A stretch of DNA of 64,000 bases from a virus: the IMG/VR virus record IMGVR_UViG_3300033144_006256, positions 1-64,000 of that record. One strand, given 5' to 3'. The notes under the pieces are model-generated. The model was not told the DNA's origin. It saw only the letters and a program-made list of their open reading frames with translations, and made no database searches. Position 1 is the first letter of the stretch. Every line of letters starts with the position of its first letter. The position numbers and the translations under genes were made by a program. Positions 12,822 through 59,233 of the stretch are shown here, piece after piece.

Positions 12822-13012
12822 TGAAAAAAATTATAAATACTTATCCGAAAACATTATCGTTTTCTGATATAAGATTAAATATACAATCTAGCGAAATATT
12901 GAATGTGCCAGATAGCATAGCAAAGTATATGCTTGTAAATCCGTTCATCAAGCTAGTACAAGCGGATAAATTCCGTAAAACGGGTAATACCCGAATTAAA
13001 AAGAAAGGATAA
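12821..13012 (+). CDS. Small hypothetical protein
   Basis: Overlapping stop/start (TAATG) inside the structural operon. Confidence 0.5.
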   Translation: MKKIINTYPKTLSFSDIRLNIQSSEILNVPDSIAKYMLVNPFIKLVQADKFRKTGNTRIKKKG

Positions 13013-13014
13013 AT

Positions 13015-14010
13015 ATGCCAATTAACAGTGGGCGGTTAGGATGGCTTGGTATAGCACTTAACGCATCAGCAGGTGATGACAATGAACCAGAAAAATATAT
13101 ACCATTTAGAACTTGCACTTTAAAAAGTGTTATGGAACCAATAGAAGATAATGCAGCAAGGGGATTAAGGGAAGCTGTATCTGCTGGTTCATCAACATCA
13201 GATGAAGGCGGTCCTATAATAGGTAAAACAAGGGGGGAAGGGACTACCGAATGTTTTGTAGATGTAGAAAATGCACCTTATCTACTTATACCAGCATTAG
13301 GCTCAGTTTCAACAACAGCTGCATCAGGTGAAGCGGCAGTTTATGAGCATACTATTACAAGGAAAGCTGCAAACGCACCGAAAACAGCAACACTTACATC
13401 GTATAGGGTAGTTGATACTGAAAAATATCTTTATGCAACAGCAAATTCAACTACATTAGCTGTTAGCGATGGTGAATTTACAATATCAACCGATTGGATT
13501 AGTAAATTCCCAATAGCAGGCTCAGGTTCAAAATCATTAACAGAAGAAAGAATATTAAGTTTTAAAGATTATACTGTTAAATTCGGTGATGATTTAACCG
13601 CGGCAGATAGTGCAGAAGCAACACCATTAACAGGATTTACGCTAACTATAAATAATAATGCAGAAGCACATTATTTAAGCGGTTCAAACGATGTAAATGT
13701 AGTAAGTTTAGGAAACTTTGAATTGTCAGGTGATTTTAGTTTATTCTTTGAATCTGAAACACAAAAAGATATTTATGAAACACTTGATAAAAAAGCAATG
13801 GTAATATCAATCACAGGTGCATCAATTGGAAATTCAGAAACAGCAGAAATACAGATCAGAATACCACGTGTTTATTTTACAGATCATTCAGTTGAAACAG
13901 GAATTGATGGATTTTATGCTGAAACACCATCTTGGAAAGCAGGATATGATAGCGGACAATCAAGTTCTATAACCGTTATAATAACTAACGAAACAGCAAG
14001 TTATACTTAA
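13015..14010 (+). CDS. Major tail tube protein
   Basis: 331 aa, acidic and beta-rich, FTLTINNN motif, GAAAGG RBS, followed by a terminator, then chaperone and tape measure genes. Confidence 0.75.
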   Translation: MPINSGRLGWLGIALNASAGDDNEPEKYIPFRTCTLKSVMEPIEDNAARGLREAVSAGSSTSDEGGPIIGKTRGEGTTECFVDVENAPYLLIPALGSVSTTAASGEAAVYEHTITRKAANAPKTATLTSYRVVDTEKYLYATANSTTLAVSDGEFTISTDWISKFPIAGSGSKSLTEERILSFKDYTVKFGDDLTAADSAEATPLTGFTLTINNNAEAHYLSGSNDVNVVSLGNFELSGDFSLFFESETQKDIYETLDKKAMVISITGASIGNSETAEIQIRIPRVYFTDHSVETGIDGFYAETPSWKAGYDSGQSSSITVIITNETASYT

Positions 14011-14043: not shown

Positions 14044-14077
14044 AATCAACTAAGTTAAAAATATGCCAAAGATATAG

Positions 14078-14105
14078 TTGACAATTTACAGAGATATATT
14101 ATAAT
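14078..14105 (+). promoter_or_regulatory. Sigma70-type promoter for a probably leaderless tnpB mRNA
   Basis: TTGACA-16 nt-TATAAT, with ATG 6 nt after the -10 box and no SD. Confidence 0.75.
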
Positions 14106-14111
14106 CTATAT

Positions 14112-15260
14112 ATGGAAAAAGGAATAAAATATAGGTTATATCCTAATAATAAACAAAGAATATTATTAGAAAAACATTTTGGTGCTACAAGATGGTTATA
14201 TAATTATAGTTTGAATAAAAAAATAAAACTATATCAGAGAAGAAACAAGTCGATAAGTTGTTTTGATTTAATAAAAGAAATCCCTAAATTAAAAGATGAT
14301 AGAGAATGGTTAAAAGAAGTTAATTCGCAATCTTTACAGATGGAATTACGCCAACTAGATAATGCTTTCACAAGATTTTTTAGAGAGAAAAAAGGGTTTC
14401 CAAATTTTAAATCAAAGAAGAAAAAAAACTCGTTTAGTATACCACAAGGTAATAGAATAGAAGATAACAAAGTTTCTTTTATAAAGATTGGTAGTATTAA
14501 AGCTAAAATAGACAGAAAATTTGATGGGAGAATAATAAAAGCAACAATAAGTAAAAATAATATAAACCAATATTTTGTTTCATATATTATAGATACCAAT
14601 AATATATTAGAGCATACCAGAAATATCAATAAGAAAACAACTGTTGGGATTGATTTAGGGATAAAACACTTTGCTATTCTATCAAGTGGAGAAAAAATTG
14701 ATAATCCGAAATTTTTAAGAAAATCAGAGCAAAGATTAGCCATTCTTCAAAAAAGATTAAGCAAAAAGAAAAAAGGTAGTAACAATAGAATAAAAGCAAG
14801 ATATAAAGTAGCTAAAATACATAACAAAATATCAAATCAAAGGTCGTATTTCTTACATAATCTAACTTCAAAGCTAACCAACGATAACCAAGTTGATACA
14901 TACGCTATTGAAAATCTAAACATAAATGGAATGATAAAGAACCACTGTTTAGCAAAATCAATTAGTGATGTTAGTTGGGGCGAATTTGTAAGGCAATTAT
15001 CTTATAAATGCAAATGGTATGGCAAAAATCTATTAACAATCGGTAGATTTGAACCAAGTAGCAAAATGTGTAGTTGTGGGTATATAAATAAAGAATTAAA
15101 ACTTTCAGATAGAGAATGGGAATGCCCAGAATGTAAAGTAACCCACGATAGGGATATACTTGCATCGAATAACATTAAAAAATTTGCATTACAAAATCAA
15201 AACTTAATAAATAATTCACCGTTGTTGAAACGGGTAGAGCCTGTGGAGCTGTCGCATTAG
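14112..15260 (+). CDS. tnpB: RNA-guided endonuclease TnpB (IS200/IS605 family)
   Basis: N-terminal KYRLYP HTH; RuvC D/E/D intact (GIDLG, IENL, HDRD); CSCG..CPEC zinc finger. Confidence 0.95.
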   Translation: MEKGIKYRLYPNNKQRILLEKHFGATRWLYNYSLNKKIKLYQRRNKSISCFDLIKEIPKLKDDREWLKEVNSQSLQMELRQLDNAFTRFFREKKGFPNFKSKKKKNSFSIPQGNRIEDNKVSFIKIGSIKAKIDRKFDGRIIKATISKNNINQYFVSYIIDTNNILEHTRNINKKTTVGIDLGIKHFAILSSGEKIDNPKFLRKSEQRLAILQKRLSKKKKGSNNRIKARYKVAKIHNKISNQRSYFLHNLTSKLTNDNQVDTYAIENLNINGMIKNHCLAKSISDVSWGEFVRQLSYKCKWYGKNLLTIGRFEPSSKMCSCGYINKELKLSDREWECPECKVTHDRDILASNNIKKFALQNQNLINNSPLLKRVEPVELSH

Positions 15261-15320
15261 CGAGGTATTGAAGCAGGAATTAACGAAAGGATAAATCAAA
15301 TGCCAAAGATAGAAGATACT
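15219..15320 (+). ncRNA. Omega-RNA (reRNA) scaffold 1 plus predicted guide
   Basis: Stem CCGTT-GTTGA-AACGG whose loop can pair with TCAA (15296-15299); CCTG-TGGAG...GAAG-CAGG core typical of TnpB RNAs. Confidence 0.7.
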
Positions 15321-15614
15321 ATCAAAAAAATAGATATTATTTTGCCAAGTAATAAAGAAGTAAAATTAACAATTAGAAAAGGTATGTCCGTAGGTGATCT
15401 TGAAGAAGTTAATATAGAAGAAGATGATTTTAAGCGTTCAATAATAATGCTTGAAAAGATGATAGTTAGTTGGAATTTTACTGATAAAGATGAAAACCCA
15501 TTGCCGATAGTATATGATAATATACGGAAATTAAATATATCTGATATGAATTTTATCATTAAAAGTGCGGATATTAAAAACGGTTTTTTAGAGCAGAAGC
15601 AAGAAGAGAAATAG
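15300..15614 (+). CDS. Tail assembly chaperone (G form)
   Basis: IVSWNFTD...LP motif; sits between tail tube and tape measure genes. Confidence 0.75.
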   Translation: MPKIEDTIKKIDIILPSNKEVKLTIRKGMSVGDLEEVNIEEDDFKRSIIMLEKMIVSWNFTDKDENPLPIVYDNIRKLNISDMNFIIKSADIKNGFLEQKQEEK

Positions 15615-15787
15615 CGAAATCGATATGGCTAAACCAAAGGAGCTATCTTGCGACAAAACTATGGTTGTGCAGTGAAATGAGCTGGACGGAACAAGAGTTT
15701 TTAAACCAAAATATTGAATTTGTAGAGGCATTGATTGAATACAAAATACAAATCAGCAAAAAAGCTGAAAGTGATAGAAAAAAATAA
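15584..15787 (+). CDS. -1 frameshift extension of the tail assembly chaperone (GT form)
   Basis: In-frame slippery heptamer T TTT TTA at 15584-15590. The -1 frame is open to TAA 15785-15787 (..WLCSEMSWTEQEFLNQ..), abutting the tape measure ATG. Confidence 0.75.
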   Translation, partial: FFRAEARREIAKSIWLNQRSYLATKLWLCSEMSWTEQEFLNQNIEFVEALIEYKIQISKKAESDRKK

Positions 15788-17872
15788 ATGGCGACAGCAG
15801 ATAATAGTTTAAATATATTTATTAGGGTTAAAACTGAAGCAGAAAAAGCCATTAGAAATGTATCAAAAGAATTAGATACACTTACTAATAATATTTCTTC
15901 TTTTAGTAAAAAAAATGAAGAAGCTATAAAGGCTTCTAATAGATTTGCTATTGGGCTAACTGCTGTTGCTGGTGCTGCTAGTTATATGGGCAAACAAATG
16001 TTAGATGCAGCTGGAACATTTGAACAAAGCCAAATTGCTTTTACAACTATGCTTGGTAGTGCAACCCGTGCAGAAACAATGCTTGATAAACTTGCTGAAT
16101 TTGCTAAAAGAACACCTTTTGAATTAGCTGGGATAGAAGCAAATACAAAACAATTATTAGCAATGGGAATATCTAGCACTAAGATAATGCCAACATTAAA
16201 AGCATTAGGTGATATTTCAGCAGGGTTAAGTGTACCATTAGAAAGATTAGCTTTAAACTTTGGACAAGTAAAAACACAAGGGAAATTAACAGGTAGGGAA
16301 TTAAGAGATTTCTCAGTAGCTGGTGTTCCATTAGTTGCAGAACTTGCAAAACAATTAAACGTTTCTAAATCCGCAATAGCAGAAATGGTTTCTGCTGGTG
16401 ATATAGGGTTTGAAGAAGTTGAAAAAGCATTTATTTCTATGTCCTCTGAAGGTGGTAAATTTAATAATTTAATGGATAAACAATCGAAATCATTAAATGG
16501 TATGATTTCTAATCTTAAAGACGCTTGGGAATTATTTTTAAGAGGTGAAGGACAAAAATTATTAGAATGGGGAAAGCAATTTGTTCAAATGGCAATAGAT
16601 ATAGTTGATAATAAACTTCCAAAATGGATAAATAGAATTGAAGATATAACTAAATATTTAAAAGAACATAAAACTACATTAATTGTTGTTTCTGGGATAA
16701 TAATGGGTGCATTAGCACCAGCTGTTATTTCAGCAGCAACTGCCTTTAGTGCATTAGCATTATCATTAGCACCATTTTTAATAACTGGTGTAATCGCTGG
16801 TGCATTAGCCGCAGGGATAATAGCTATTATAAAAAATTTTGATAAATTAAAAAAAATTGTAGTAGATACTTGGGATAAAATTAAAAATGGTTGGAAGGCA
16901 GTAGCTAATTGGTTTAAAACTGGTGGAGCAGGGACTTGGGGATGGGTTAAAAATTTTTTCAAATCATTGATTGATAGTATAAAAAGTTTTTTTACATTCA
17001 AATGGATAAAAGATGGACTTTTATCACTTAGAGATATGACTAAACGGGTTACCAAAGAAATCACCGAGACTGATGAAGAAAGGATGGCGAGATATAAAAA
17101 AATACAAGAAGAAACGATAAAAAGGGCGTGGGGGATGGAATTAGAATGGCGAGCGAAACAAATAGAAATGGCGGAAGATGCGAAAGAAGCACAAGAAGCA
17201 ATGGCTAGAGCATCAAAAGAGGCATCAGAAGAAGCAGAAAAAGCAGCAAAAGAAGCATCTAAAGCGTGGAAAGAATATGTAAATAAAACGGTGGATAATC
17301 TTCAAAGGTTAAAAGATGAATTTTTTGGTGAAAGAGATGAAGAAGTATCAGCATTAGAAGATATGATTAGTAAAAGGCAAGAATTACAAGACGAGATTAA
17401 ACAAGAGCGTGGTTTGCTAATGGGAACATTTTTAGGCGAACAACTTACTAATAAAGAAATTGAAAAAAGAATGGCATTACACGGGGACGAAATAAAAGCA
17501 CTTGATAAAAGATTTGTAGCAGAACAAACACAAATAGAACAGGCAGAAGAAAGAATAAGGCAATTAAAATCAGAAGAAAAAATACTTGATACTAATACTA
17601 TTAAATTAAGAGCATTACAAAGACAAGCAGTAGTTGAAAAACAAATAACTGGTATGGGATTAGATTTACCAGCCAGAGAAACACCTGGGTTTCAAGCACC
17701 ACTTCCTATAGATTGGATAAAAGCTGGTATGCCATCACAAGGGTTAGCACAAAATATTCTTAACTTTGATTTTAGCGGAGCAAGAATAGAAGATAAAGAA
17801 ACATTTAAAAATGATATTATAGAAGTATTAAGGCAACAAAGTATACTAGGAGTTCAAGGATTAACACAATGA
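15788..17872 (+). CDS. Tail tape measure protein
   Basis: Tape-measure N-terminal domain (FAKRTPFEL..GQVKTQGKLTGRELR), Trp-periodic amphipathic helices, coiled coil. Confidence 0.92.
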   Translation: MATADNSLNIFIRVKTEAEKAIRNVSKELDTLTNNISSFSKKNEEAIKASNRFAIGLTAVAGAASYMGKQMLDAAGTFEQSQIAFTTMLGSATRAETMLDKLAEFAKRTPFELAGIEANTKQLLAMGISSTKIMPTLKALGDISAGLSVPLERLALNFGQVKTQGKLTGRELRDFSVAGVPLVAELAKQLNVSKSAIAEMVSAGDIGFEEVEKAFISMSSEGGKFNNLMDKQSKSLNGMISNLKDAWELFLRGEGQKLLEWGKQFVQMAIDIVDNKLPKWINRIEDITKYLKEHKTTLIVVSGIIMGALAPAVISAATAFSALALSLAPFLITGVIAGALAAGIIAIIKNFDKLKKIVVDTWDKIKNGWKAVANWFKTGGAGTWGWVKNFFKSLIDSIKSFFTFKWIKDGLLSLRDMTKRVTKEITETDEERMARYKKIQEETIKRAWGMELEWRAKQIEMAEDAKEAQEAMARASKEASEEAEKAAKEASKAWKEYVNKTVDNLQRLKDEFFGERDEEVSALEDMISKRQELQDEIKQERGLLMGTFLGEQLTNKEIEKRMALHGDEIKALDKRFVAEQTQIEQAEERIRQLKSEEKILDTNTIKLRALQRQAVVEKQITGMGLDLPARETPGFQAPLPIDWIKAGMPSQGLAQNILNFDFSGARIEDKETFKNDIIEVLRQQSILGVQGLTQ

Positions 17873-17882
17873 GCATTCAATT

Positions 17883-17911
17883 TTGACAAAAAATAAAATA
17901 TTTTGTATAAT
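17883..17911 (+). promoter_or_regulatory. Sigma70-type promoter for a probably leaderless tnpB mRNA
   Basis: TTGACA-17 nt-TATAAT, with ATG (17918) 6 nt after the -10 box; same geometry as cassette 1. Confidence 0.75.
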
Positions 17912-17917
17912 ATAGAT

Positions 17918-19042
17918 ATGTGTAAGAGTTATAGAATAAAGTTATATCCTAACAATATACAAAAACAAGAATTATTAAAATATGCTGGTGCTTGTAGATT
18001 TGTATATAATTATTTTCTTGATAGAAAGAAAACTGAATATTTAAAAAATAGTAAAAATATCCCATATAATAAACTTTCAAAAGAATTAGTAGTTTTAAGA
18101 CACAATACAAGTTGGCTAAAAAATATACCGTTTGTCCCACTCCAACAATCATTAAGGAATTTAGATACTGCATATAATAAATTTTTTAGGAAACAAGCAA
18201 AATTCCCAAAGTTTAAAAGAAAATATAGTAGGCAATCAATAAGAAAAATTAATGGGTGGCATATAAAAAATAATAAGATAGTTTTTTCTAAAGAATTACA
18301 TTTGAAATTTAGGGGTAGAATTACAGAAAACCCAGTAGGCACTTTAACTATATCAAGGAATGCAATTGGAGAATGGTTCGCCTCTGTAATGGAAGATATA
18401 GAAGTTAAAAAAGTAAAGTTAAAAGGCAATATAGGAATTGATTTAGGTATTAAAGATTTGGCTATAACAAGCGATGGCGATAAATACAAGAATTGCAAAC
18501 CATTAAAATCAAATTTAAAACAATTAAGAAAGAAATCAAAAATACTTTCTAAAAAGAAAAAAGGAAGTAATAGAAGAAAGAAAGCAAGATTTGAATTAGC
18601 AATATTGCACAATAAAATTAGTAATATAAGGAATAATCATCTTCATCATACTTCAAAAGCGATTGTTAGCAAAAACCACGCGATAATTGCATTAGAAGAT
18701 TTGGCGGTTATAAATATGATGAAGAATAGAAAACTATCGCAAGCAATATCAGATGTAGGTTGGGCTGAATTAGTAAGGCAAATTACATATAAACAAAGTT
18801 GGATAGGTGGAAAAGTAATCAAAATTAACAGATTTTTCCCTTCATCGAAGACTTGCTCCAAGTGTGGATTTGTTTTAGATAGTTTGCCATTAAATATTAG
18901 AGAATGGCAATGCCCAAAATGCAAAGCAAAACACGACCGCGATGTTAATGCTGGTAAGAATATCTTATCGCAAGCATTAAAAACCGCTAAAAATATTTTA
19001 AAACAAGGGGTTGCGGAACTGCCCCGCGTGGAGAGCAGATAA
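17918..19042 (+). CDS. tnpB: RNA-guided endonuclease TnpB; likely start ATG 17918 rather than TTG 17903
   Basis: SYRIKLYP HTH; RuvC D/E/D intact (GIDLG, LEDL, HDRD); CSKC..CPKC zinc finger. Confidence 0.95.
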   Translation: MCKSYRIKLYPNNIQKQELLKYAGACRFVYNYFLDRKKTEYLKNSKNIPYNKLSKELVVLRHNTSWLKNIPFVPLQQSLRNLDTAYNKFFRKQAKFPKFKRKYSRQSIRKINGWHIKNNKIVFSKELHLKFRGRITENPVGTLTISRNAIGEWFASVMEDIEVKKVKLKGNIGIDLGIKDLAITSDGDKYKNCKPLKSNLKQLRKKSKILSKKKKGSNRRKKARFELAILHNKISNIRNNHLHHTSKAIVSKNHAIIALEDLAVINMMKNRKLSQAISDVGWAELVRQITYKQSWIGGKVIKINRFFPSSKTCSKCGFVLDSLPLNIREWQCPKCKAKHDRDVNAGKNILSQALKTAKNILKQGVAELPRVESR

Positions 19043-19122
19043 GCCCTTAATTTATTAAGGCAAGCTCTATGAAACGCTGATATCTTAGAAAGGATAATTC
19101 CGTGAGCATTCAATATAATTCA
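19007..19122 (+). ncRNA. Omega-RNA scaffold 2 plus predicted guide
   Basis: Stem GGGGTTG-CGGAA-CTGCCCC; loop complementary to TTCCG (19098-19102); GCGT-GGAG...GAA-ACGC core; terminal hairpin TATCTT-AGAA-AGGATA. Confidence 0.75.
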
Positions 19123-20364
19123 ACTGAATTAGAAAACGCAACTTATAATGCAGAATTTGTTAAACACGAAAGCACACCGAATAGAGAATTAAATATAATC
19201 CCGCATATTAAACAAACAGGTGGTATATTAGTTAATGAAAGATTCCCATATAAAACAATACCATTAAGGGGATATATAGTAGGTTCATCACAATCAGATT
19301 TAGATAGTAAAATTGATACACTTAAAAATTTATTTAATACAAGCGAAAAAAATTTAGATGTTAGCTGGGCAGGCGGGACAAGAAGATATGTAGCAACGCC
19401 AAGAAATTTTATATGCGATAGAAACCATTATAATGTTTCATCAGTTAATTTTAGTGTTGATTTTGTTGTGCCAAGTGGTGTAGGTAAAGCTACAAGTTTA
19501 ACCCCAGTTATAAATGCTTTGTCAGTAACATCAACGCCATACACTAACACTACTATGAATTTAAGTAGTGGTTCATCAAGAATACGCCCTTTGATAACAA
19601 TAACAACAAACAGTGGGACGATACACGGATATAAAGTAACTAATACAATAACTGGCGATTATTTTATCTTAACAAGAGGTGGAACTGGGTTAATCTCTGG
19701 ACGAACTATAGATTGCGATGCAAAAACGATAAATGGTGTTTATGATAATTTTATAGGTGATTTTTTAGATTATTCCCCATTGGCGAATAGGCGATTGAGA
19801 ATAGATGTTGGAGAAATATTAGATGAACATTTTGATAGTTATGAGTATGGTGTTGCTATATATAATGATGGTGCTAATGACATTGAAAGAGCCGTAAGTT
19901 TTAAAACAAAACATTCTGATGATACATATAGAAAAATGGCTTGTTTTATTAAAAAAACAGGGACACCAGTTGGGAACTTAAATTGGAGAATAGAAACTGA
20001 TAATAATGGAGAGCCATCAGGGACTTTAATCCACGCACAAGCGTATGGAGCAATATCTGCTGGAGAGGTAACAACAAGTCTTGATTGGGTAGAAGATTAT
20101 ACAAATAGCACATTTACTGGGATAAAAGCTAACACTACATATTGGTTAAGATTTGCCGCATCTGCATCTGGGGGTGATAGTTCAAATTGTTTTGTGATTG
20201 GGTATGGTGCTGAATATAGTAAGGGGACTGGTGCTACGACAGATGACGGTGGGACAACTTGGACAATATCAACTAAAGCATATCCATTTAGATTATATAT
20301 AGGTGGAGCAACACCTGGATTTAATTTTACTCTTGATCTTGATTATTATCCAACATATTTATGA
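19102..20364 (+). CDS. Distal tail (Dit-like) protein with an inserted beta-sandwich domain
   Basis: I.LRGYI...DLDSKIDTLK..F, RRYVA and FSVDF motifs; first structural gene after the tape measure. Confidence 0.6.
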   Translation: MSIQYNSTELENATYNAEFVKHESTPNRELNIIPHIKQTGGILVNERFPYKTIPLRGYIVGSSQSDLDSKIDTLKNLFNTSEKNLDVSWAGGTRRYVATPRNFICDRNHYNVSSVNFSVDFVVPSGVGKATSLTPVINALSVTSTPYTNTTMNLSSGSSRIRPLITITTNSGTIHGYKVTNTITGDYFILTRGGTGLISGRTIDCDAKTINGVYDNFIGDFLDYSPLANRRLRIDVGEILDEHFDSYEYGVAIYNDGANDIERAVSFKTKHSDDTYRKMACFIKKTGTPVGNLNWRIETDNNGEPSGTLIHAQAYGAISAGEVTTSLDWVEDYTNSTFTGIKANTTYWLRFAASASGGDSSNCFVIGYGAEYSKGTGATTDDGGTTWTISTKAYPFRLYIGGATPGFNFTLDLDYYPTYL

Positions 20365-46374: not shown

Positions 46375-46530
46375 ATGCCTACTGTATCAGAAGAAAAGAA
46401 AAAAGAATATTTAGCACTTATAAGAAGATTATTAGTTATGAATCCAAATATAACTGTTTTAGGTATTCAATCAGCATTAGAAAATAGTAAAAATAGTTTT
46501 AATCGATTTTTTTATAAAAATATGTTATAA
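46375..46530 (+). pseudogene. Orphaned 5' part of the terminase small subunit gene (51 aa)
   Basis: MPTVSEEKKKEYLALIRRLLVMNPNITVLGIQSALENSK aligns with the N-terminus encoded at 47301; has an AAAGGA RBS. Confidence 0.8.
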
Positions 46531-46607
46531 TATATTTATAGGGACGAGAAATATTTTTTATGCCTGCCAATGGCTCGTCCCTGAGGTAGGCTTTTAAGTA
46601 TATTATT

Positions 46608-47296
46608 ATGCCATCAGGAGTTTATAAAAGAAGTGAATTAGAAAAAAATAGATTATATAATAATCTAAAATATAGTATTAGGGTTGGTATGACTGGCAAA
46701 AAGCATTCAGAGCATTCAAAAAAGAAGATGAGTAATTCTAAATTAGGTAAGCATTATTCGACAAGGACTGAGTTTAAAAAAGGTAACCCACCGTGGAATA
46801 AAGGCAAAAAATTATCAGATGAATATAGAAAAAAATTAAGTGAATCACATAAGGGGTTGCAATCTTATTGGAAAGGCAGAAAAAGAGGAGCGATGTCAGA
46901 TGAATGGAAAAGAAAAATATCAGAAGCTAATAGGGGGGGGCTAAAGGGAACGCTTGGAAAGGTGGTATAACAAAAAAACATTTTGCAGAAAGAAATAATG
47001 TTGAAATTAAAATTTGGAAGGCTAATATTTTTAAAAAATATAATTGGTCTTGTAGAAAATGTGGTAAAATAGGTGGTAGGTTGCAAGCCCACCATATATA
47101 TAATTTTTCTAGTCACATTAATTTTAGATCTAAGATTGATAATGGTATATTACTATGCAACGAATGCCATAAAGAATTTCATAAAATATATAAAAGGGTA
47201 AATAATAATATAGAGCAAATAGATATTTTTATAAATGGTTATAATACTATAAAACAGTTTTTAAGGGATAATTATAAAGAAATATTTTGTGATTAA
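46608..47296 (+). pseudogene. NUMOD3-HNH homing endonuclease, frameshifted at a G8 tract
   Basis: NUMOD3 repeats (GKKHSEHSKKKMS). After 46933-46940 another frame reads AWKGG..CRKC..QAHHI..NGILLCNECH. Confidence 0.8.
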
Positions 47297-47300
47297 AAAT

Positions 47301-47792
47301 ATGCCAGCATATAGTGAAGAGAAAAAAAATCAATTTATGGAGTATATTAGAAGGCTATTAGTTATGAGTCCTAATATTTCTATTTTATCAATACAAGAAT
47401 CTCTTGAAAAAAGTAAAGGGATAAGGCTAGATAAAGATTATATACATAAACTAAGAAACAAAATATTTGCAGAAAGAGCGAATAGGTATAATTATTATAC
47501 TATAAAAAAATTGTTGCCAGAATATAGTGACGAAATAGAAATAATTAAAAGTAGATTGTGGAGCATATTAAATAACAAAGATGCTGAAGATAGAGATAAA
47601 ATTAGGGCTCTAAGTGAAATAAGAAATTCAAGTAAAGATTTACTAAACGCTATGGCTGATGCTGGCGTATTTACAAGGGAGATAGGAAAACTTGATACTG
47701 GTATGGCTGAAATAGTAAAGATGATTAAAGAATACTACCCTAAAAAAGAAATAAAGCCAGAAGATGTGCCAGGTGAAGCACCGCAGGAATAG
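47301..47792 (+). CDS. Putative terminase small subunit
   Basis: Helical N-terminal HTH-like region, DKIRAL..I motif, position upstream of terL. Confidence 0.55.
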   Translation: MPAYSEEKKNQFMEYIRRLLVMSPNISILSIQESLEKSKGIRLDKDYIHKLRNKIFAERANRYNYYTIKKLLPEYSDEIEIIKSRLWSILNNKDAEDRDKIRALSEIRNSSKDLLNAMADAGVFTREIGKLDTGMAEIVKMIKEYYPKKEIKPEDVPGEAPQE

Positions 47793-57262: not shown

Positions 57263-57335
57263 AATTTAAAGAATAAAATTATGGACGAAATAGTTTCAAA
57301 AACCAAGAAATTATTTCTTCGTGATAATAGTATAA

Positions 57336-57463
57336 AGAGCAGCGGTACTGCTCTACGTGGAGAGACAATAAGACCATTTATGGGTAACTGTAATAAGGCA
57401 ATCTCAGTGAAGCGTTGATATCTTATTAGAAAGGATAATACCGTGGACGAAATAAAAGCGTTA
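57336..57463 (+). ncRNA. Orphan omega-RNA scaffold 3 plus predicted guide (no tnpB)
   Basis: AGAGCAG-CGGTA-CTGCTCT stem; loop complementary to TACCG (57439-57443); ACGT-GGAG...GAA-GCGT core; TATCTT..AAGGATA hairpin; TGGACGAAATA duplicated at 57282 and 57444. Confidence 0.75.
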
Positions 57464-59233
57464 ATAACAATATTAGAAAGTGCATTAAAAAGTGAAAACA
57501 AAGAAGCGATAAAAGAAAGTATTGATAAAGTTATTGCTAAACTTAAAGGAACAACTGATAAAACAAAAGAAAATGGGTTAAAAGATAGTGTAATCCCATA
57601 TAAACAAACTCCCTTAGCAGAAGAAAAAGAAAAATGGGATGCTGGTGCAGAAGTTAAAAAGGCAACAGGCGATGCAGAAAAACTTTATACAATGCACGCT
57701 TATGTTGATAGAAGCGATGATAATTTTGATGATACAGAAAGTAAATGGTATAAATTGCCGCATCACAAAGGCGATGGCGACCAGCAGTTAGTTTGGAAAG
57801 GATTATCAGCAGCAGTAGCGGCAATGCGTGGTGCTCGTGGTGGCGTTGATGTCCCAAAAGAAGAACGAACAGGTATAATGGCACATTTAAGAAAACACTA
57901 TGCAGAATTTGATAAACCATTCCCAGAAGAAGATAGTGACATTCCTATTTTGGGGTTATCTGAAGATAAAAAAACTATTTATAGGATCGATACAGATAGT
58001 AAATCAACTGTTGACGGGAATCTTGTAAGGGCTCAAGTATTAAAAATTAAAAAGTTAATACATAGGGATGCAAAAGGCGGAGTATTAAATGTTACTAAAG
58101 AAAGCATTAAAAAAATAATCAAGAATTTTAAAGATGGCATTATAGATAATGTTTATGTCCCGCTTGGGCATACAAATGATGTTAAAAAAAATACTGGGAA
58201 AGTTGTTGATTTAATACCAACAGAAGATGGGATGGATGCAATTATAGATGTGCGTGATAAAGGAATAATAAAAAAGTTGAAAGATAAATTGATTGAAAAA
58301 GTTTCTGCTTCAATAGATGAAAATTATCTTAATAAAGAAACAGGCAAATTTGTTGGTCCCGTATTAAGGCATATAGCATTAGTATCAGAACCGTATATAA
58401 AAGGGATGAATAAAGATGGTCTTGTTTTTTTAGAAGAAGATGAAGAAAAAAATGTTGTAGTATTAGTAGAAGAAACAACAATAGAAGAAGATTTAACAAC
58501 AATTAAAGATACAATTAACTTTGCGATTGAAAGGATTGCGAAGAAACTAGTAAAGGATAAAAAAATGTATACAAATGAAACTAAAAATACATCTGATGAG
58601 GTTAAGAAAGAAGATGAAGTTATAGAAGAAAAATCAGATGAAATTAAAGATGAAAAAACTACAGAGGATGAAAAATCTGATGAAACTCCCAAGGAAAAAA
58701 CTAAGGAAGATGAAAAATCTGATAAAAAATCAGATGAAAAATCTACCGAAGATGAAACTAAGGAAGAAAAATCAGAGGATACTTCAACGGATAGCGAATC
58801 GAAAGATGAAACTACTGAAGAAGAATCAGAGTCTGTAGACAACAGCGAGAAAGATGAAGAAATCAACCTCGCAGAAGCTGAAAAAGAATATAATGAATTC
58901 TTAATAGCTGGTAAAGTACTGCCAGTTCAAAAAGATGCCGTTATAGCATTGTTAGCTTCTAAAGGAACGATTAACTTATCAGAAAGTGAAAAATCAGTTT
59001 CTGAACTAGTTAGAAGTTTACTAGAAAAGCAAAAATCTTTGGATTTTGAAGAAAAAGGTGCTGAAAATACTGATAAAGTAGAAACGAAGAGTGAAGATGC
59101 AGAAGCGATAAAAGATGAAAAAATCGGTTTTTTAAAGCAAAAAATGGGTTATTCAGAGGAAGAAGCCCAAGTTGCCTTTGAAGAATATTCAAAGATAAAT
59201 GAGGCAAAAGGCGGGATGGAAACAACAGGATAA
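57443..59233 (+). CDS. Mu-like protease/scaffold (gpI/Z-type) protein
   Basis: YKLPHH domain; PLGH, VSASI and GPVLRHIALVSEP protease motifs; acidic scaffold tail. Confidence 0.75.
   Translation: MDEIKALITILESALKSENKEAIKESIDKVIAKLKGTTDKTKENGLKDSVIPYKQTPLAEEKEKWDAGAEVKKATGDAEKLYTMHAYVDRSDDNFDDTESKWYKLPHHKGDGDQQLVWKGLSAAVAAMRGARGGVDVPKEERTGIMAHLRKHYAEFDKPFPEEDSDIPILGLSEDKKTIYRIDTDSKSTVDGNLVRAQVLKIKKLIHRDAKGGVLNVTKESIKKIIKNFKDGIIDNVYVPLGHTNDVKKNTGKVVDLIPTEDGMDAIIDVRDKGIIKKLKDKLIEKVSASIDENYLNKETGKFVGPVLRHIALVSEPYIKGMNKDGLVFLEEDEEKNVVVLVEETTIEEDLTTIKDTINFAIERIAKKLVKDKKMYTNETKNTSDEVKKEDEVIEEKSDEIKDEKTTEDEKSDETPKEKTKEDEKSDKKSDEKSTEDETKEEKSEDTSTDSESKDETTEEESESVDNSEKDEEINLAEAEKEYNEFLIAGKVLPVQKDAVIALLASKGTINLSESEKSVSELVRSLLEKQKSLDFEEKGAENTDKVETKSEDAEAIKDEKIGFLKQKMGYSEEEAQVAFEEYSKINEAKGGMETTG

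Follow-up and report, generated by a model that had tools for sequence, protein, structure and literature searches.

Transposase-less TnpB and guide-RNA elements at rebuilt gene starts of an uncultured phage: candidates for RNA-guided homing

How can a nuclease cassette without a transposase come to lie at the start of an essential virion gene, and leave that gene intact? This question is raised by IMGVR_UViG_3300033144_006256, an 84.6-kb IMG/VR record of an uncultured, siphophage-type phage, of which positions 1-64,000 form the window. Two tnpB genes, tnpB1 and tnpB2, are sited in its tail module, as delimited by domain searches. A reading of the window made from the sequence only, without database searches, had proposed that these genes belong to cassettes that insert into gene starts, rebuild them and spread by homing rather than as ordinary insertion sequences (IS). 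We find that the window carries what, by sequence, are three IS200/IS605-derived, IS1341-like omega-RNA elements: two with TnpB, one consisting of guide RNA only, and none with a transposase. We put the odds that they arose by RNA-guided homing into the gene starts of cassette-free phages at about even (a probability near 0.5).

Three elements bounded by repeats of a gene start

The elements and the parts that define them, all on the + strand, are as follows (nt, nucleotides; aa, amino acids; ORF, open reading frame; RBS, ribosome-binding site).

Element 1
14063-14074, +: upstream repeat copy ATGCCAAAGATA (12 nt), in the relic mini-ORF ATG CCA AAG ATA TAG (14063-14077)
14078-14105, +: left end, a TTGACA-16 nt-TATAAT promoter, 6 nt before the tnpB1 ATG
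14112-15260, +: tnpB1, 382 aa, with intact RuvC D/E/D and zinc finger (domain search, alignment)
15219-15299, +: predicted omega-RNA scaffold core, with stem 1 at 15219-15233, pseudoknot between 15225-15228 and 15296-15299, and RBS GAAAGGA at 15285-15291
15300-15614, +: working gene, 104 aa, in the position of a tail assembly chaperone gene

Element 2
17870-17881, +: upstream repeat copy TGAGCATTCAAT (12 nt), behind the relic ATG at 17869
17883-17911, +: left end, a TTGACA-17 nt-TATAAT promoter, 6 nt before the tnpB2 ATG
17918-19042, +: tnpB2, 374 aa, with intact D/E/D and CxxC...CxxC (domain search, alignment)
19007-19102, +: predicted omega-RNA scaffold, with hairpin at 19007-19025, pseudoknot between 19014-19018 and 19098-19102, and RBS GAAAGGA at 19088-19094
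19102-20364, +: working gene, 420 aa, Sipho_tail/Dit-like, GTG start

Element 3
57281-57292, +: relic ATGGACGAAATA, comprising the relic ATG and the upstream repeat copy TGGACGAAATA (57282-57292)
57293-57443, +: body of the tnpB-less mini-element, a decayed left end fused to the scaffold
57443-59233, +: working gene, 596 aa, following the prohead protease gene, GTG start, opening with GTGGACGAAATA

The relic mini-ORFs proposed at 14063 and 17869, and the recurrence of their sequence downstream, proved exact in coordinates and in letters. ATGCCAAAGATA recurs at 15300-15311, where it is at once the downstream repeat copy, the start of the working gene and the first 12 nt of the predicted guide. 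Likewise, TGAGCATTCAAT recurs at 19103-19114, behind the GTG at 19102, as downstream copy and start of the guide. The relic mini-ORF of element 2 (ATG AGC ATT CAA TTT TGA, 17869-17886) overlaps and preserves the stop codon TGA of the tape measure gene (17870-17872). The third element, at 57281-57454, has the same layout with an 11-nt repeat (downstream copy at 57444-57454) and has no tnpB. The right end of element 2 and the RNA part of this third element are 73% identical (alignment, blastn), and the left part of the latter can be aligned to the element 2 promoter region, so element 3 is a core-deleted derivative. A blastn search of the record for further copies of the scaffolds returned only these three.

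Repeats of this kind are not expected by chance. With 11 registers allowed, the expectation per repeat is about 5e-6 to 2e-5, and the joint expectation about 5e-16. In the 84.6-kb record, the sole other seed match of at least 9 nt to each 20-nt guide is the element's own relic, apart from one 10-nt run for the guide labelled W1, at 71289. A genome-wide scan for more relic/start pairs gave no excess over its control (14 versus 12, + strand). It had been remarked that each guide starts where the duplication starts. The position is right, but the agreement is not an independent coincidence, as it is automatic for any flanking repeat. What is not trivial is that the repeat exists at all, and that it begins at the start codon every time.

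The flanking tail genes, assigned by domain searches, are the tail tube gene before element 1 and the tape measure gene before element 2:
13015-14010: tail tube gene
15788-17872: tape measure gene

The GC content of the cassettes is the same as that of the rest of the phage (G+C 30%). Past the window, ATGAAAAATATA occurs three times within 900 nt (66149, 66193 and 67008, record coordinates) as an ORF start or near-start; these are probably chance in an AT-rich genome or paralogous starts.

Right ends combine a conserved scaffold with a ribosome-binding site

To delimit the right ends we compared tnpB1 with a clade sample of nine relatives from IMG/VR and metagenomes (61-72% protein identity in the best segment); the closest tnpB homologues are 66-72% identical. 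The 3′ regions of the window element and the nine relatives share a predicted fold, in which 13 of 17 pairs covary. In 8 of 9 cases (the window element plus the eight relatives that have stem 1), the stem-1 loop and the final 4 nt of the right end are complementary, with four loop:end variants (TTGA:TCAA, CCAA:TTGG, CCGA:TCGG and TTGT:ACAA). This pairing places the end of the element 1 scaffold at 15299; the range listed above is that of the scaffold core.

The second scaffold type gives a similar picture. In element 3 the hairpin lies at 57336-57354 and the pseudoknot joins 57343-57347 to 57439-57443. Between elements 2 and 3 three pairs show compensatory changes, two of them in the first hairpin and the third in the pseudoknot (CGGAA:TTCCG versus CGGTA:TACCG), and in the alignment of the two elements 96% of cells are paired, compared with 33-54% when the partners are slid. 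Covariation in the clade and between elements 2 and 3 bears out the right-end boundary and the pseudoknot as predicted, and argues that the scaffold structure is under selection, the tnpB-less copy included. Because the covarying pseudoknots fix the right ends, the guides begin at 15300, 19103 and 57444, and the predicted guide is templated by the first 16-20 nt of the downstream gene. In elements 2 and 3 the final pseudoknot base is the G of the GTG start, which explains why both working starts are GTG and both relics ATG.

The right ends also serve the downstream gene. GAAAGGATAA is found in all three, and native genes at 13003 and 43706 have it as their RBS too, in agreement with the proposal that the 3′ region of the omega-RNA supplies the RBS. 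The position that GAAAGGA occupies in element 1 is, in its relatives, a 5-bp hairpin lacking GGA; the element 1 right end has thus been remodelled into an RBS. Since the right end carries the phage RBS motif and ends at the start codon, expression of the downstream gene should be kept; promoter and RBS together would maintain the function of the operon. All ten loci of the tnpB1 clade have AT(G/A) after the right end, and in six of them the right end abuts an ATG start. A search of Rfam returned only a sub-threshold match to poplar-1. Of two omega-RNA pattern scans, one gave a single spurious coding match and the other none.

Intact nucleases, bare-promoter left ends and no transposase

TnpB1 and TnpB2 are divergent (42% identity), and both are full length, with HTH, OrfB_IS605 and TNB domains found by domain search. 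Both can be aligned end to end with ISDra2 TnpB (8BF8/8H1J; E 4e-66). The RuvC motifs are GIDLG, AIENL or ALEDL, and HDRD, and the zinc-finger cysteines follow the pattern CxC or CxxC plus CxxC. The CxC spacing of TnpB1 is shared by 38 of 40 clade members, and is therefore not a defect. The inactivation or truncation of RuvC that marks TldR-type proteins is not seen in either protein, the triad being intact in both. To judge from these motifs, both TnpBs are apparently active nucleases. The sequence-only reading was right that the RuvC triads are intact. The start of tnpB2 is ATG 17918 and not TTG 17903, a codon that falls in and just before the -10 box.

No match to Y1 TnpA (PF01797) was found in the 84.6-kb record, which is about 80% complete (CheckV), in searches in which control queries were detected; the absence of tnpA, first noted for the window, thus extends to the whole record. 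Serine recombinases were likewise not detected in the whole 84.6-kb record.

The left ends consist of little more than a promoter. Homology among relatives starts at TTGACA, and the promoters of both tnpB genes match the sigma-70 consensus at 12 of 12 positions. The tnpB ATG lies 6-8 nt past the -10 box, in the window (14105-14112 and 17911-17918) and in the closest relatives, which suggests that tnpB messages are leaderless or nearly so. The relics end 3 nt (element 1) and 1 nt (element 2) before the -35 boxes. Over the 35-43 nt from the repeat to tnpB or the scaffold, the DNA of the three window elements folds no better than shuffled sequence (z +1.1, -1.0 and -1.3), so there is no hairpin for TnpA to bind, and terminal inverted repeats are absent from all three. 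IS200/IS605 elements make no target duplication (PMC13565253, PMC3119063). The view that these are not ordinary IS, which had counted on the lack of both tnpA and a canonical left-end hairpin, therefore stands: the record has no TnpA, the left ends have no hairpin, and the flanking repeats are foreign to the family.

In three relatives (L006, L030 and L034) the left end is longer and forms an inverted repeat of 11-18 nt with the right end. The motifs are (G/A)AATTAC(G/A)AAAT on the left, starting about 5 nt upstream of TTGACA, and ATTT(C/T)GTAA(A/T)TCAA on the right, with a covarying G/A position. Terminal inverted repeats are unexpected for IS200/IS605, which has none.

Two short identities lie to the left of element 1. 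A 13-mer at 14047-14059, beside the relic, is identical to the terminal-hairpin sequence of the right end of one relative (L031), and a 15-mer at 13891-13905, inside the tube gene, is identical to the scaffold core of another (L008). These may be traces of older right ends, or chance; such k-mers are common in an AT-rich genome and the E-values are weak.

Native start positions and the distribution of the repeat

The related tail modules within reach are all distant (tape measure 47% identical), and among them one, L003, is free of cassettes. Its homologue of the element 1 working gene begins ATGCCAAAGATT (MPKI; ATGCCAAAGAT), two bases after the stop of a tube-like gene (a label given without a family search). 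Its tape-measure stop overlaps the next start as ATGA, the same arrangement as at the relic at 17869. Since these starts match the relics, the relics mark the native start positions. L003 matches guide 1 over 11 nt only, and would therefore not be a target. We reconstructed the element-free junctions as ...ACACAATGAGCATTCAATATAAT..., ...AAAATATGCCAAAGATAGAAG... and ...AAATTATGGACGAAATAAAAG.... The search for phages with empty sites that had been suggested thus yielded the distant L003 only, and exact scans of IMG/VR gave no close empty allele.

To ask how widely the repeat occurs, we placed each right end by its pseudoknot and took the longest left-flank match anchored at guide nucleotide 1. 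This match is 12, 12 and 11 nt for the window elements and 9 nt for L034, compared with 2-6 nt for the other seven relatives and at most 7 nt for mismatched controls. L034 is a metagenomic tnpB1 relative (64% identity) with the repeat ATGTATTAC at 239-247 and 1476-1484. The repeat abuts a left end that is 20 nt longer; its downstream copy opens an ORF and its upstream copy a 10-codon relic. A survey of tnpB loci for duplicated start codons, also suggested at the outset, therefore gained one further case, and 74 other TnpB1-like loci lacked it in an unanchored search. As far as these sequences go, the scar is real but restricted to a subset, and the preference for gene starts is wider. Relatives of tnpB2 were not found in IMG/VR, and GTDB genomes yielded only proteins of at most 45% identity.

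Among the homologues of TnpB1 that have a named source, the closest (59-66% identity) belong to Patescibacteria (Candidatus Nealsonbacteria), which is a hint at the host range of this AT-rich phage.

One pair of cultured phages, Enterococcus phage iF6 and Porthos, was considered as a clean filled/empty pair and rejected, as it represents a canonical IS plus replacement of the adjacent gene. Where Porthos has a prohibitin-like gene, the 99%-identical iF6 has, in its place, a canonical TnpB IS with a left-end hairpin. Ten nucleotides of the start of that gene (GCGAGAAGAC) are left directly beside the IS, whose right end reads ...GTAGTTCAA.

Self, non-self and a possible route of spread

A cassette that targets the gene it occupies must spare its carrier. 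The seed-match scan of the record agrees with the claim that, at the native site, the carrier retains no more than 11-12 nt of match to the guide. TnpB with a 10-nt guide binds and does not cut, and editing drops below 14 nt (PMC13507860); cutting by ISDra2 TnpB needs about 12-16 bp (PMC12803034). By analogy with these proteins, the length of the relic match is at the threshold between binding and cutting. At the level of sequence, then, the carrier allele appears immune to its own guide, the full match being preceded by the scaffold end and the relic match ending after 11-12 nt.

In the explanation we favour, the TnpB-omegaRNA complex would recognise and cut the uninterrupted gene start of a closely related cassette-free phage during co-infection. 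Repair from the carrier would then copy the cassette in, as a TnpA-independent, ‘non-restorative’ homing, or the cut would merely remove a rival. The carrier would be spared because its full match is preceded by the scaffold end, and not by a target-adjacent motif (TAM), and its relic pairs over 11-12 nt only. More speculatively, the repeat could be the scar of one-sided repair: the gene side would be fixed by homologous recombination from the carrier, and on the TAM side the roughly 12 bp that TnpB holds, or leaves after trimming, would be joined to the left end of the element. Once the scar had formed, the layout would be passed on by ordinary homing. It is also speculative that the relic, beside the -35 box, acts as a site of autorepression.

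The length of the repeat could alternatively have been set by selection for a relic that is bound and not cut. A bolder version, in which the TnpB-omegaRNA makes the repeat itself (the TAM-proximal 12 bp or so of the R-loop are kept and joined to the left end of the element without TnpA, the gene side is copied from the donor, and the relic is an operator, bound and not cut, that throttles the cassette promoter), seems improbable to us. If true, it would describe a self-contained RNA-guided mobile element able to colonise the starts of essential genes.

A cassette with a protein-guided nuclease in the same phage has a comparable layout. A NUMOD3 ORF (46608-46970) and an HNH ORF (47081-47296), which appear to be one split endonuclease gene, are flanked by a relic N-terminus of 51 aa (46375) and by the diverged working N-terminus (47289) of the next gene, which is in the position of terS; the two N-termini are alike over about 40 aa (region 46375-47792). 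Insertion with replacement is a known outcome of nuclease-driven break repair. As the HNH cassette shows the same order of relic, cassette and replacement start, an origin by break repair is favoured for the TnpB scars as well. Two other sources of the repeats were considered and rejected. Peel-and-paste transposition by TnpA cannot yield such repeats, and RNA-templated insertion by reverse transcription does not fit elements 1 and 2, in which the promoter lies within the repeat-bounded unit.

Several results weigh against homing. The exact reconstructed empty sites of elements 1 and 2 are unmatched in IMG/VR, and the analysis yielded no filled/empty polymorphism. The stretches of 8 nt that precede the relics (TTAAAAAT, TAACACAA and TAAAATTA) share no clear TAM, and there is no common TAM even for elements 2 and 3, which have one scaffold type and would be expected to use the same TnpB. 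There is no consensus 5′ of TTGACA in the tnpB1 clade either. The TAM of ISDra2 is TTGAT, and by analogy the TAM might be the TTGAC of the left end itself; the empty allele would then not be a target. Most of the terminal hairpin of cassette 1 has been lost to the RBS. Finally, an unanchored search of the 74 other TnpB1-like loci found only similarity between left and right hairpins, and no such repeats. Taken together, the proposal of homing has partial support.

Other explanations

The elements could instead be stranded and domesticated: having arrived once, they would be immobile, and kept as a supply of promoters and RBSs for tail and head genes, with TnpB at most a regulator that binds the relic. 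Much of the layout could be read in this way, including relics that stop 3 nt and 1 nt short of the -35 boxes, a match of 11-12 nt that lies in the range of binding without cutting (PMC13507860), an RBS built into the right end, and a GC content equal to that of the phage. The lack of a TAM in the relic flanks and of an empty allele in the exact IMG/VR scans points the same way. However, the RuvC triad is intact in both proteins, unlike in TldR-type proteins, the same scar at three separate sites implies repeated insertion, and the relic of the tnpB-less element abuts merely a decayed promoter. We consider this explanation unlikely, though not negligible.

Two further explanations invoke a transposase. 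Ordinary IS605/IS1341 copies might have been moved in trans by a host TnpA and have survived where essential genes were spared, the repeats being by-products of later repair or recombination without a role. Relatives of tnpB1 do occur in Patescibacteria genomes, right ends in the tnpB1 clade abut ATG at six of the ten loci, and AT(G/A) at every one, even without a repeat, and cultured phages such as iF6 carry canonical TnpB IS with left-end hairpins. Against this, four elements have exact boundary repeats of 9-12 nt in a family that makes no target duplication (PMC13565253, PMC3119063), and the left ends of the three window elements lack the hairpin that TnpA would bind; we think it quite improbable that the elements are such copies. 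A transposase of another class, making a staggered cut of 9-12 nt, would produce true target-site duplications. It would account for repeats that flank the boundaries precisely for both the short left ends of the window and the long one of L034, and for the inverted repeats of 11-18 nt in L006, L030 and L034 with their covarying G/A position. Yet the three window elements have no terminal inverted repeats, no transposase gene was found in the record by the two families tested, and L006 and L030 have inverted repeats while their flanking repeats are absent or at chance level. All four duplications, moreover, start at a start codon. This origin is thus very improbable. Homing into the starts of genes in cassette-free phages remains our preferred explanation.

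Significance and comparison with known systems

The current view of TnpB is that it persists only by assisting transposons driven by TnpA. In this phage, three transposase-less elements are found at the starts of essential genes, with a promoter, an RBS, a rebuilt start and a scar of limited length. If homing is true, they would be a natural, minimal RNA-guided gene drive between viruses, in which the scar records the geometry of repair; they would also be a test bed for binding versus cutting by TnpB, and for guide-RNA maturation versus expression of the host gene. If there is no homing, they would be an example of phages domesticating IS remnants as expression modules.

The elements share with ISDra2-type TnpB (IS200/IS605; 8BF8, 8H1J) and the TnpB-only IS1341 group the protein family, a scaffold that overlaps the 3′ end of tnpB, a pseudoknot adjacent to the guide, and a guide taken from the right flank. 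In contrast to these, they have no TnpA and no left-end hairpin; their left end is a bare promoter, their right end contains an RBS, and they are flanked by repeats of 9-12 nt. Element 3 resembles PATE and other terminal-only IS605 derivatives (PMC3119063) in keeping the ends and the RNA part after loss of the tnpB core, but unlike PATE it has a covarying omega-RNA scaffold, a gene-start repeat and a site in the phage head module. IStrons (group I intron plus TnpB; 10.1101/2023.11.20.567912) similarly place a TnpB element in a gene without killing it, and face a similar conflict between guide maturation and expression of the host gene. In the present case there is no intron, and rescue is at the DNA level, by a rebuilt start, a promoter and an RBS.

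Phages have free-standing homing endonuclease genes (SegF, MobE; intronless homing), and fungal mitochondria have mobile endonuclease ORFs that supply a replacement for the end of a gene; these too consist of a nuclease cassette between a relic and a working gene end, as does the HNH example at 46375-47792 in the phage itself. The TnpB elements differ from all of these in that recognition would be RNA-guided, and in that the duplicated piece is 11-12 nt long and identical, rather than diverged or recoded. The proposed spread, by cutting IS-free copies followed by biased replication or repair without a TnpA step, is that of the TnpA-independent TnpB gene drive shown in multicopy plasmids (Mears et al. 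2025, PMC11870625) and of the ‘non-restorative homing’ between phages that has been proposed (PMC13565253). In the plasmid drive, however, an IS with canonical ends is first moved by TnpA, whereas in the present case a phage carries the elements, they occupy the starts of essential genes, and a repeat remains at the site. Our literature search found no paper on the rebuilding of gene starts or on such repeats. Given the plasmid drive and the proposed phage homing, the idea of homing itself is not new; what is new is the short identical repeat, the presence of three elements in one genome, one of them guide-only, and boundaries defined by covariation.

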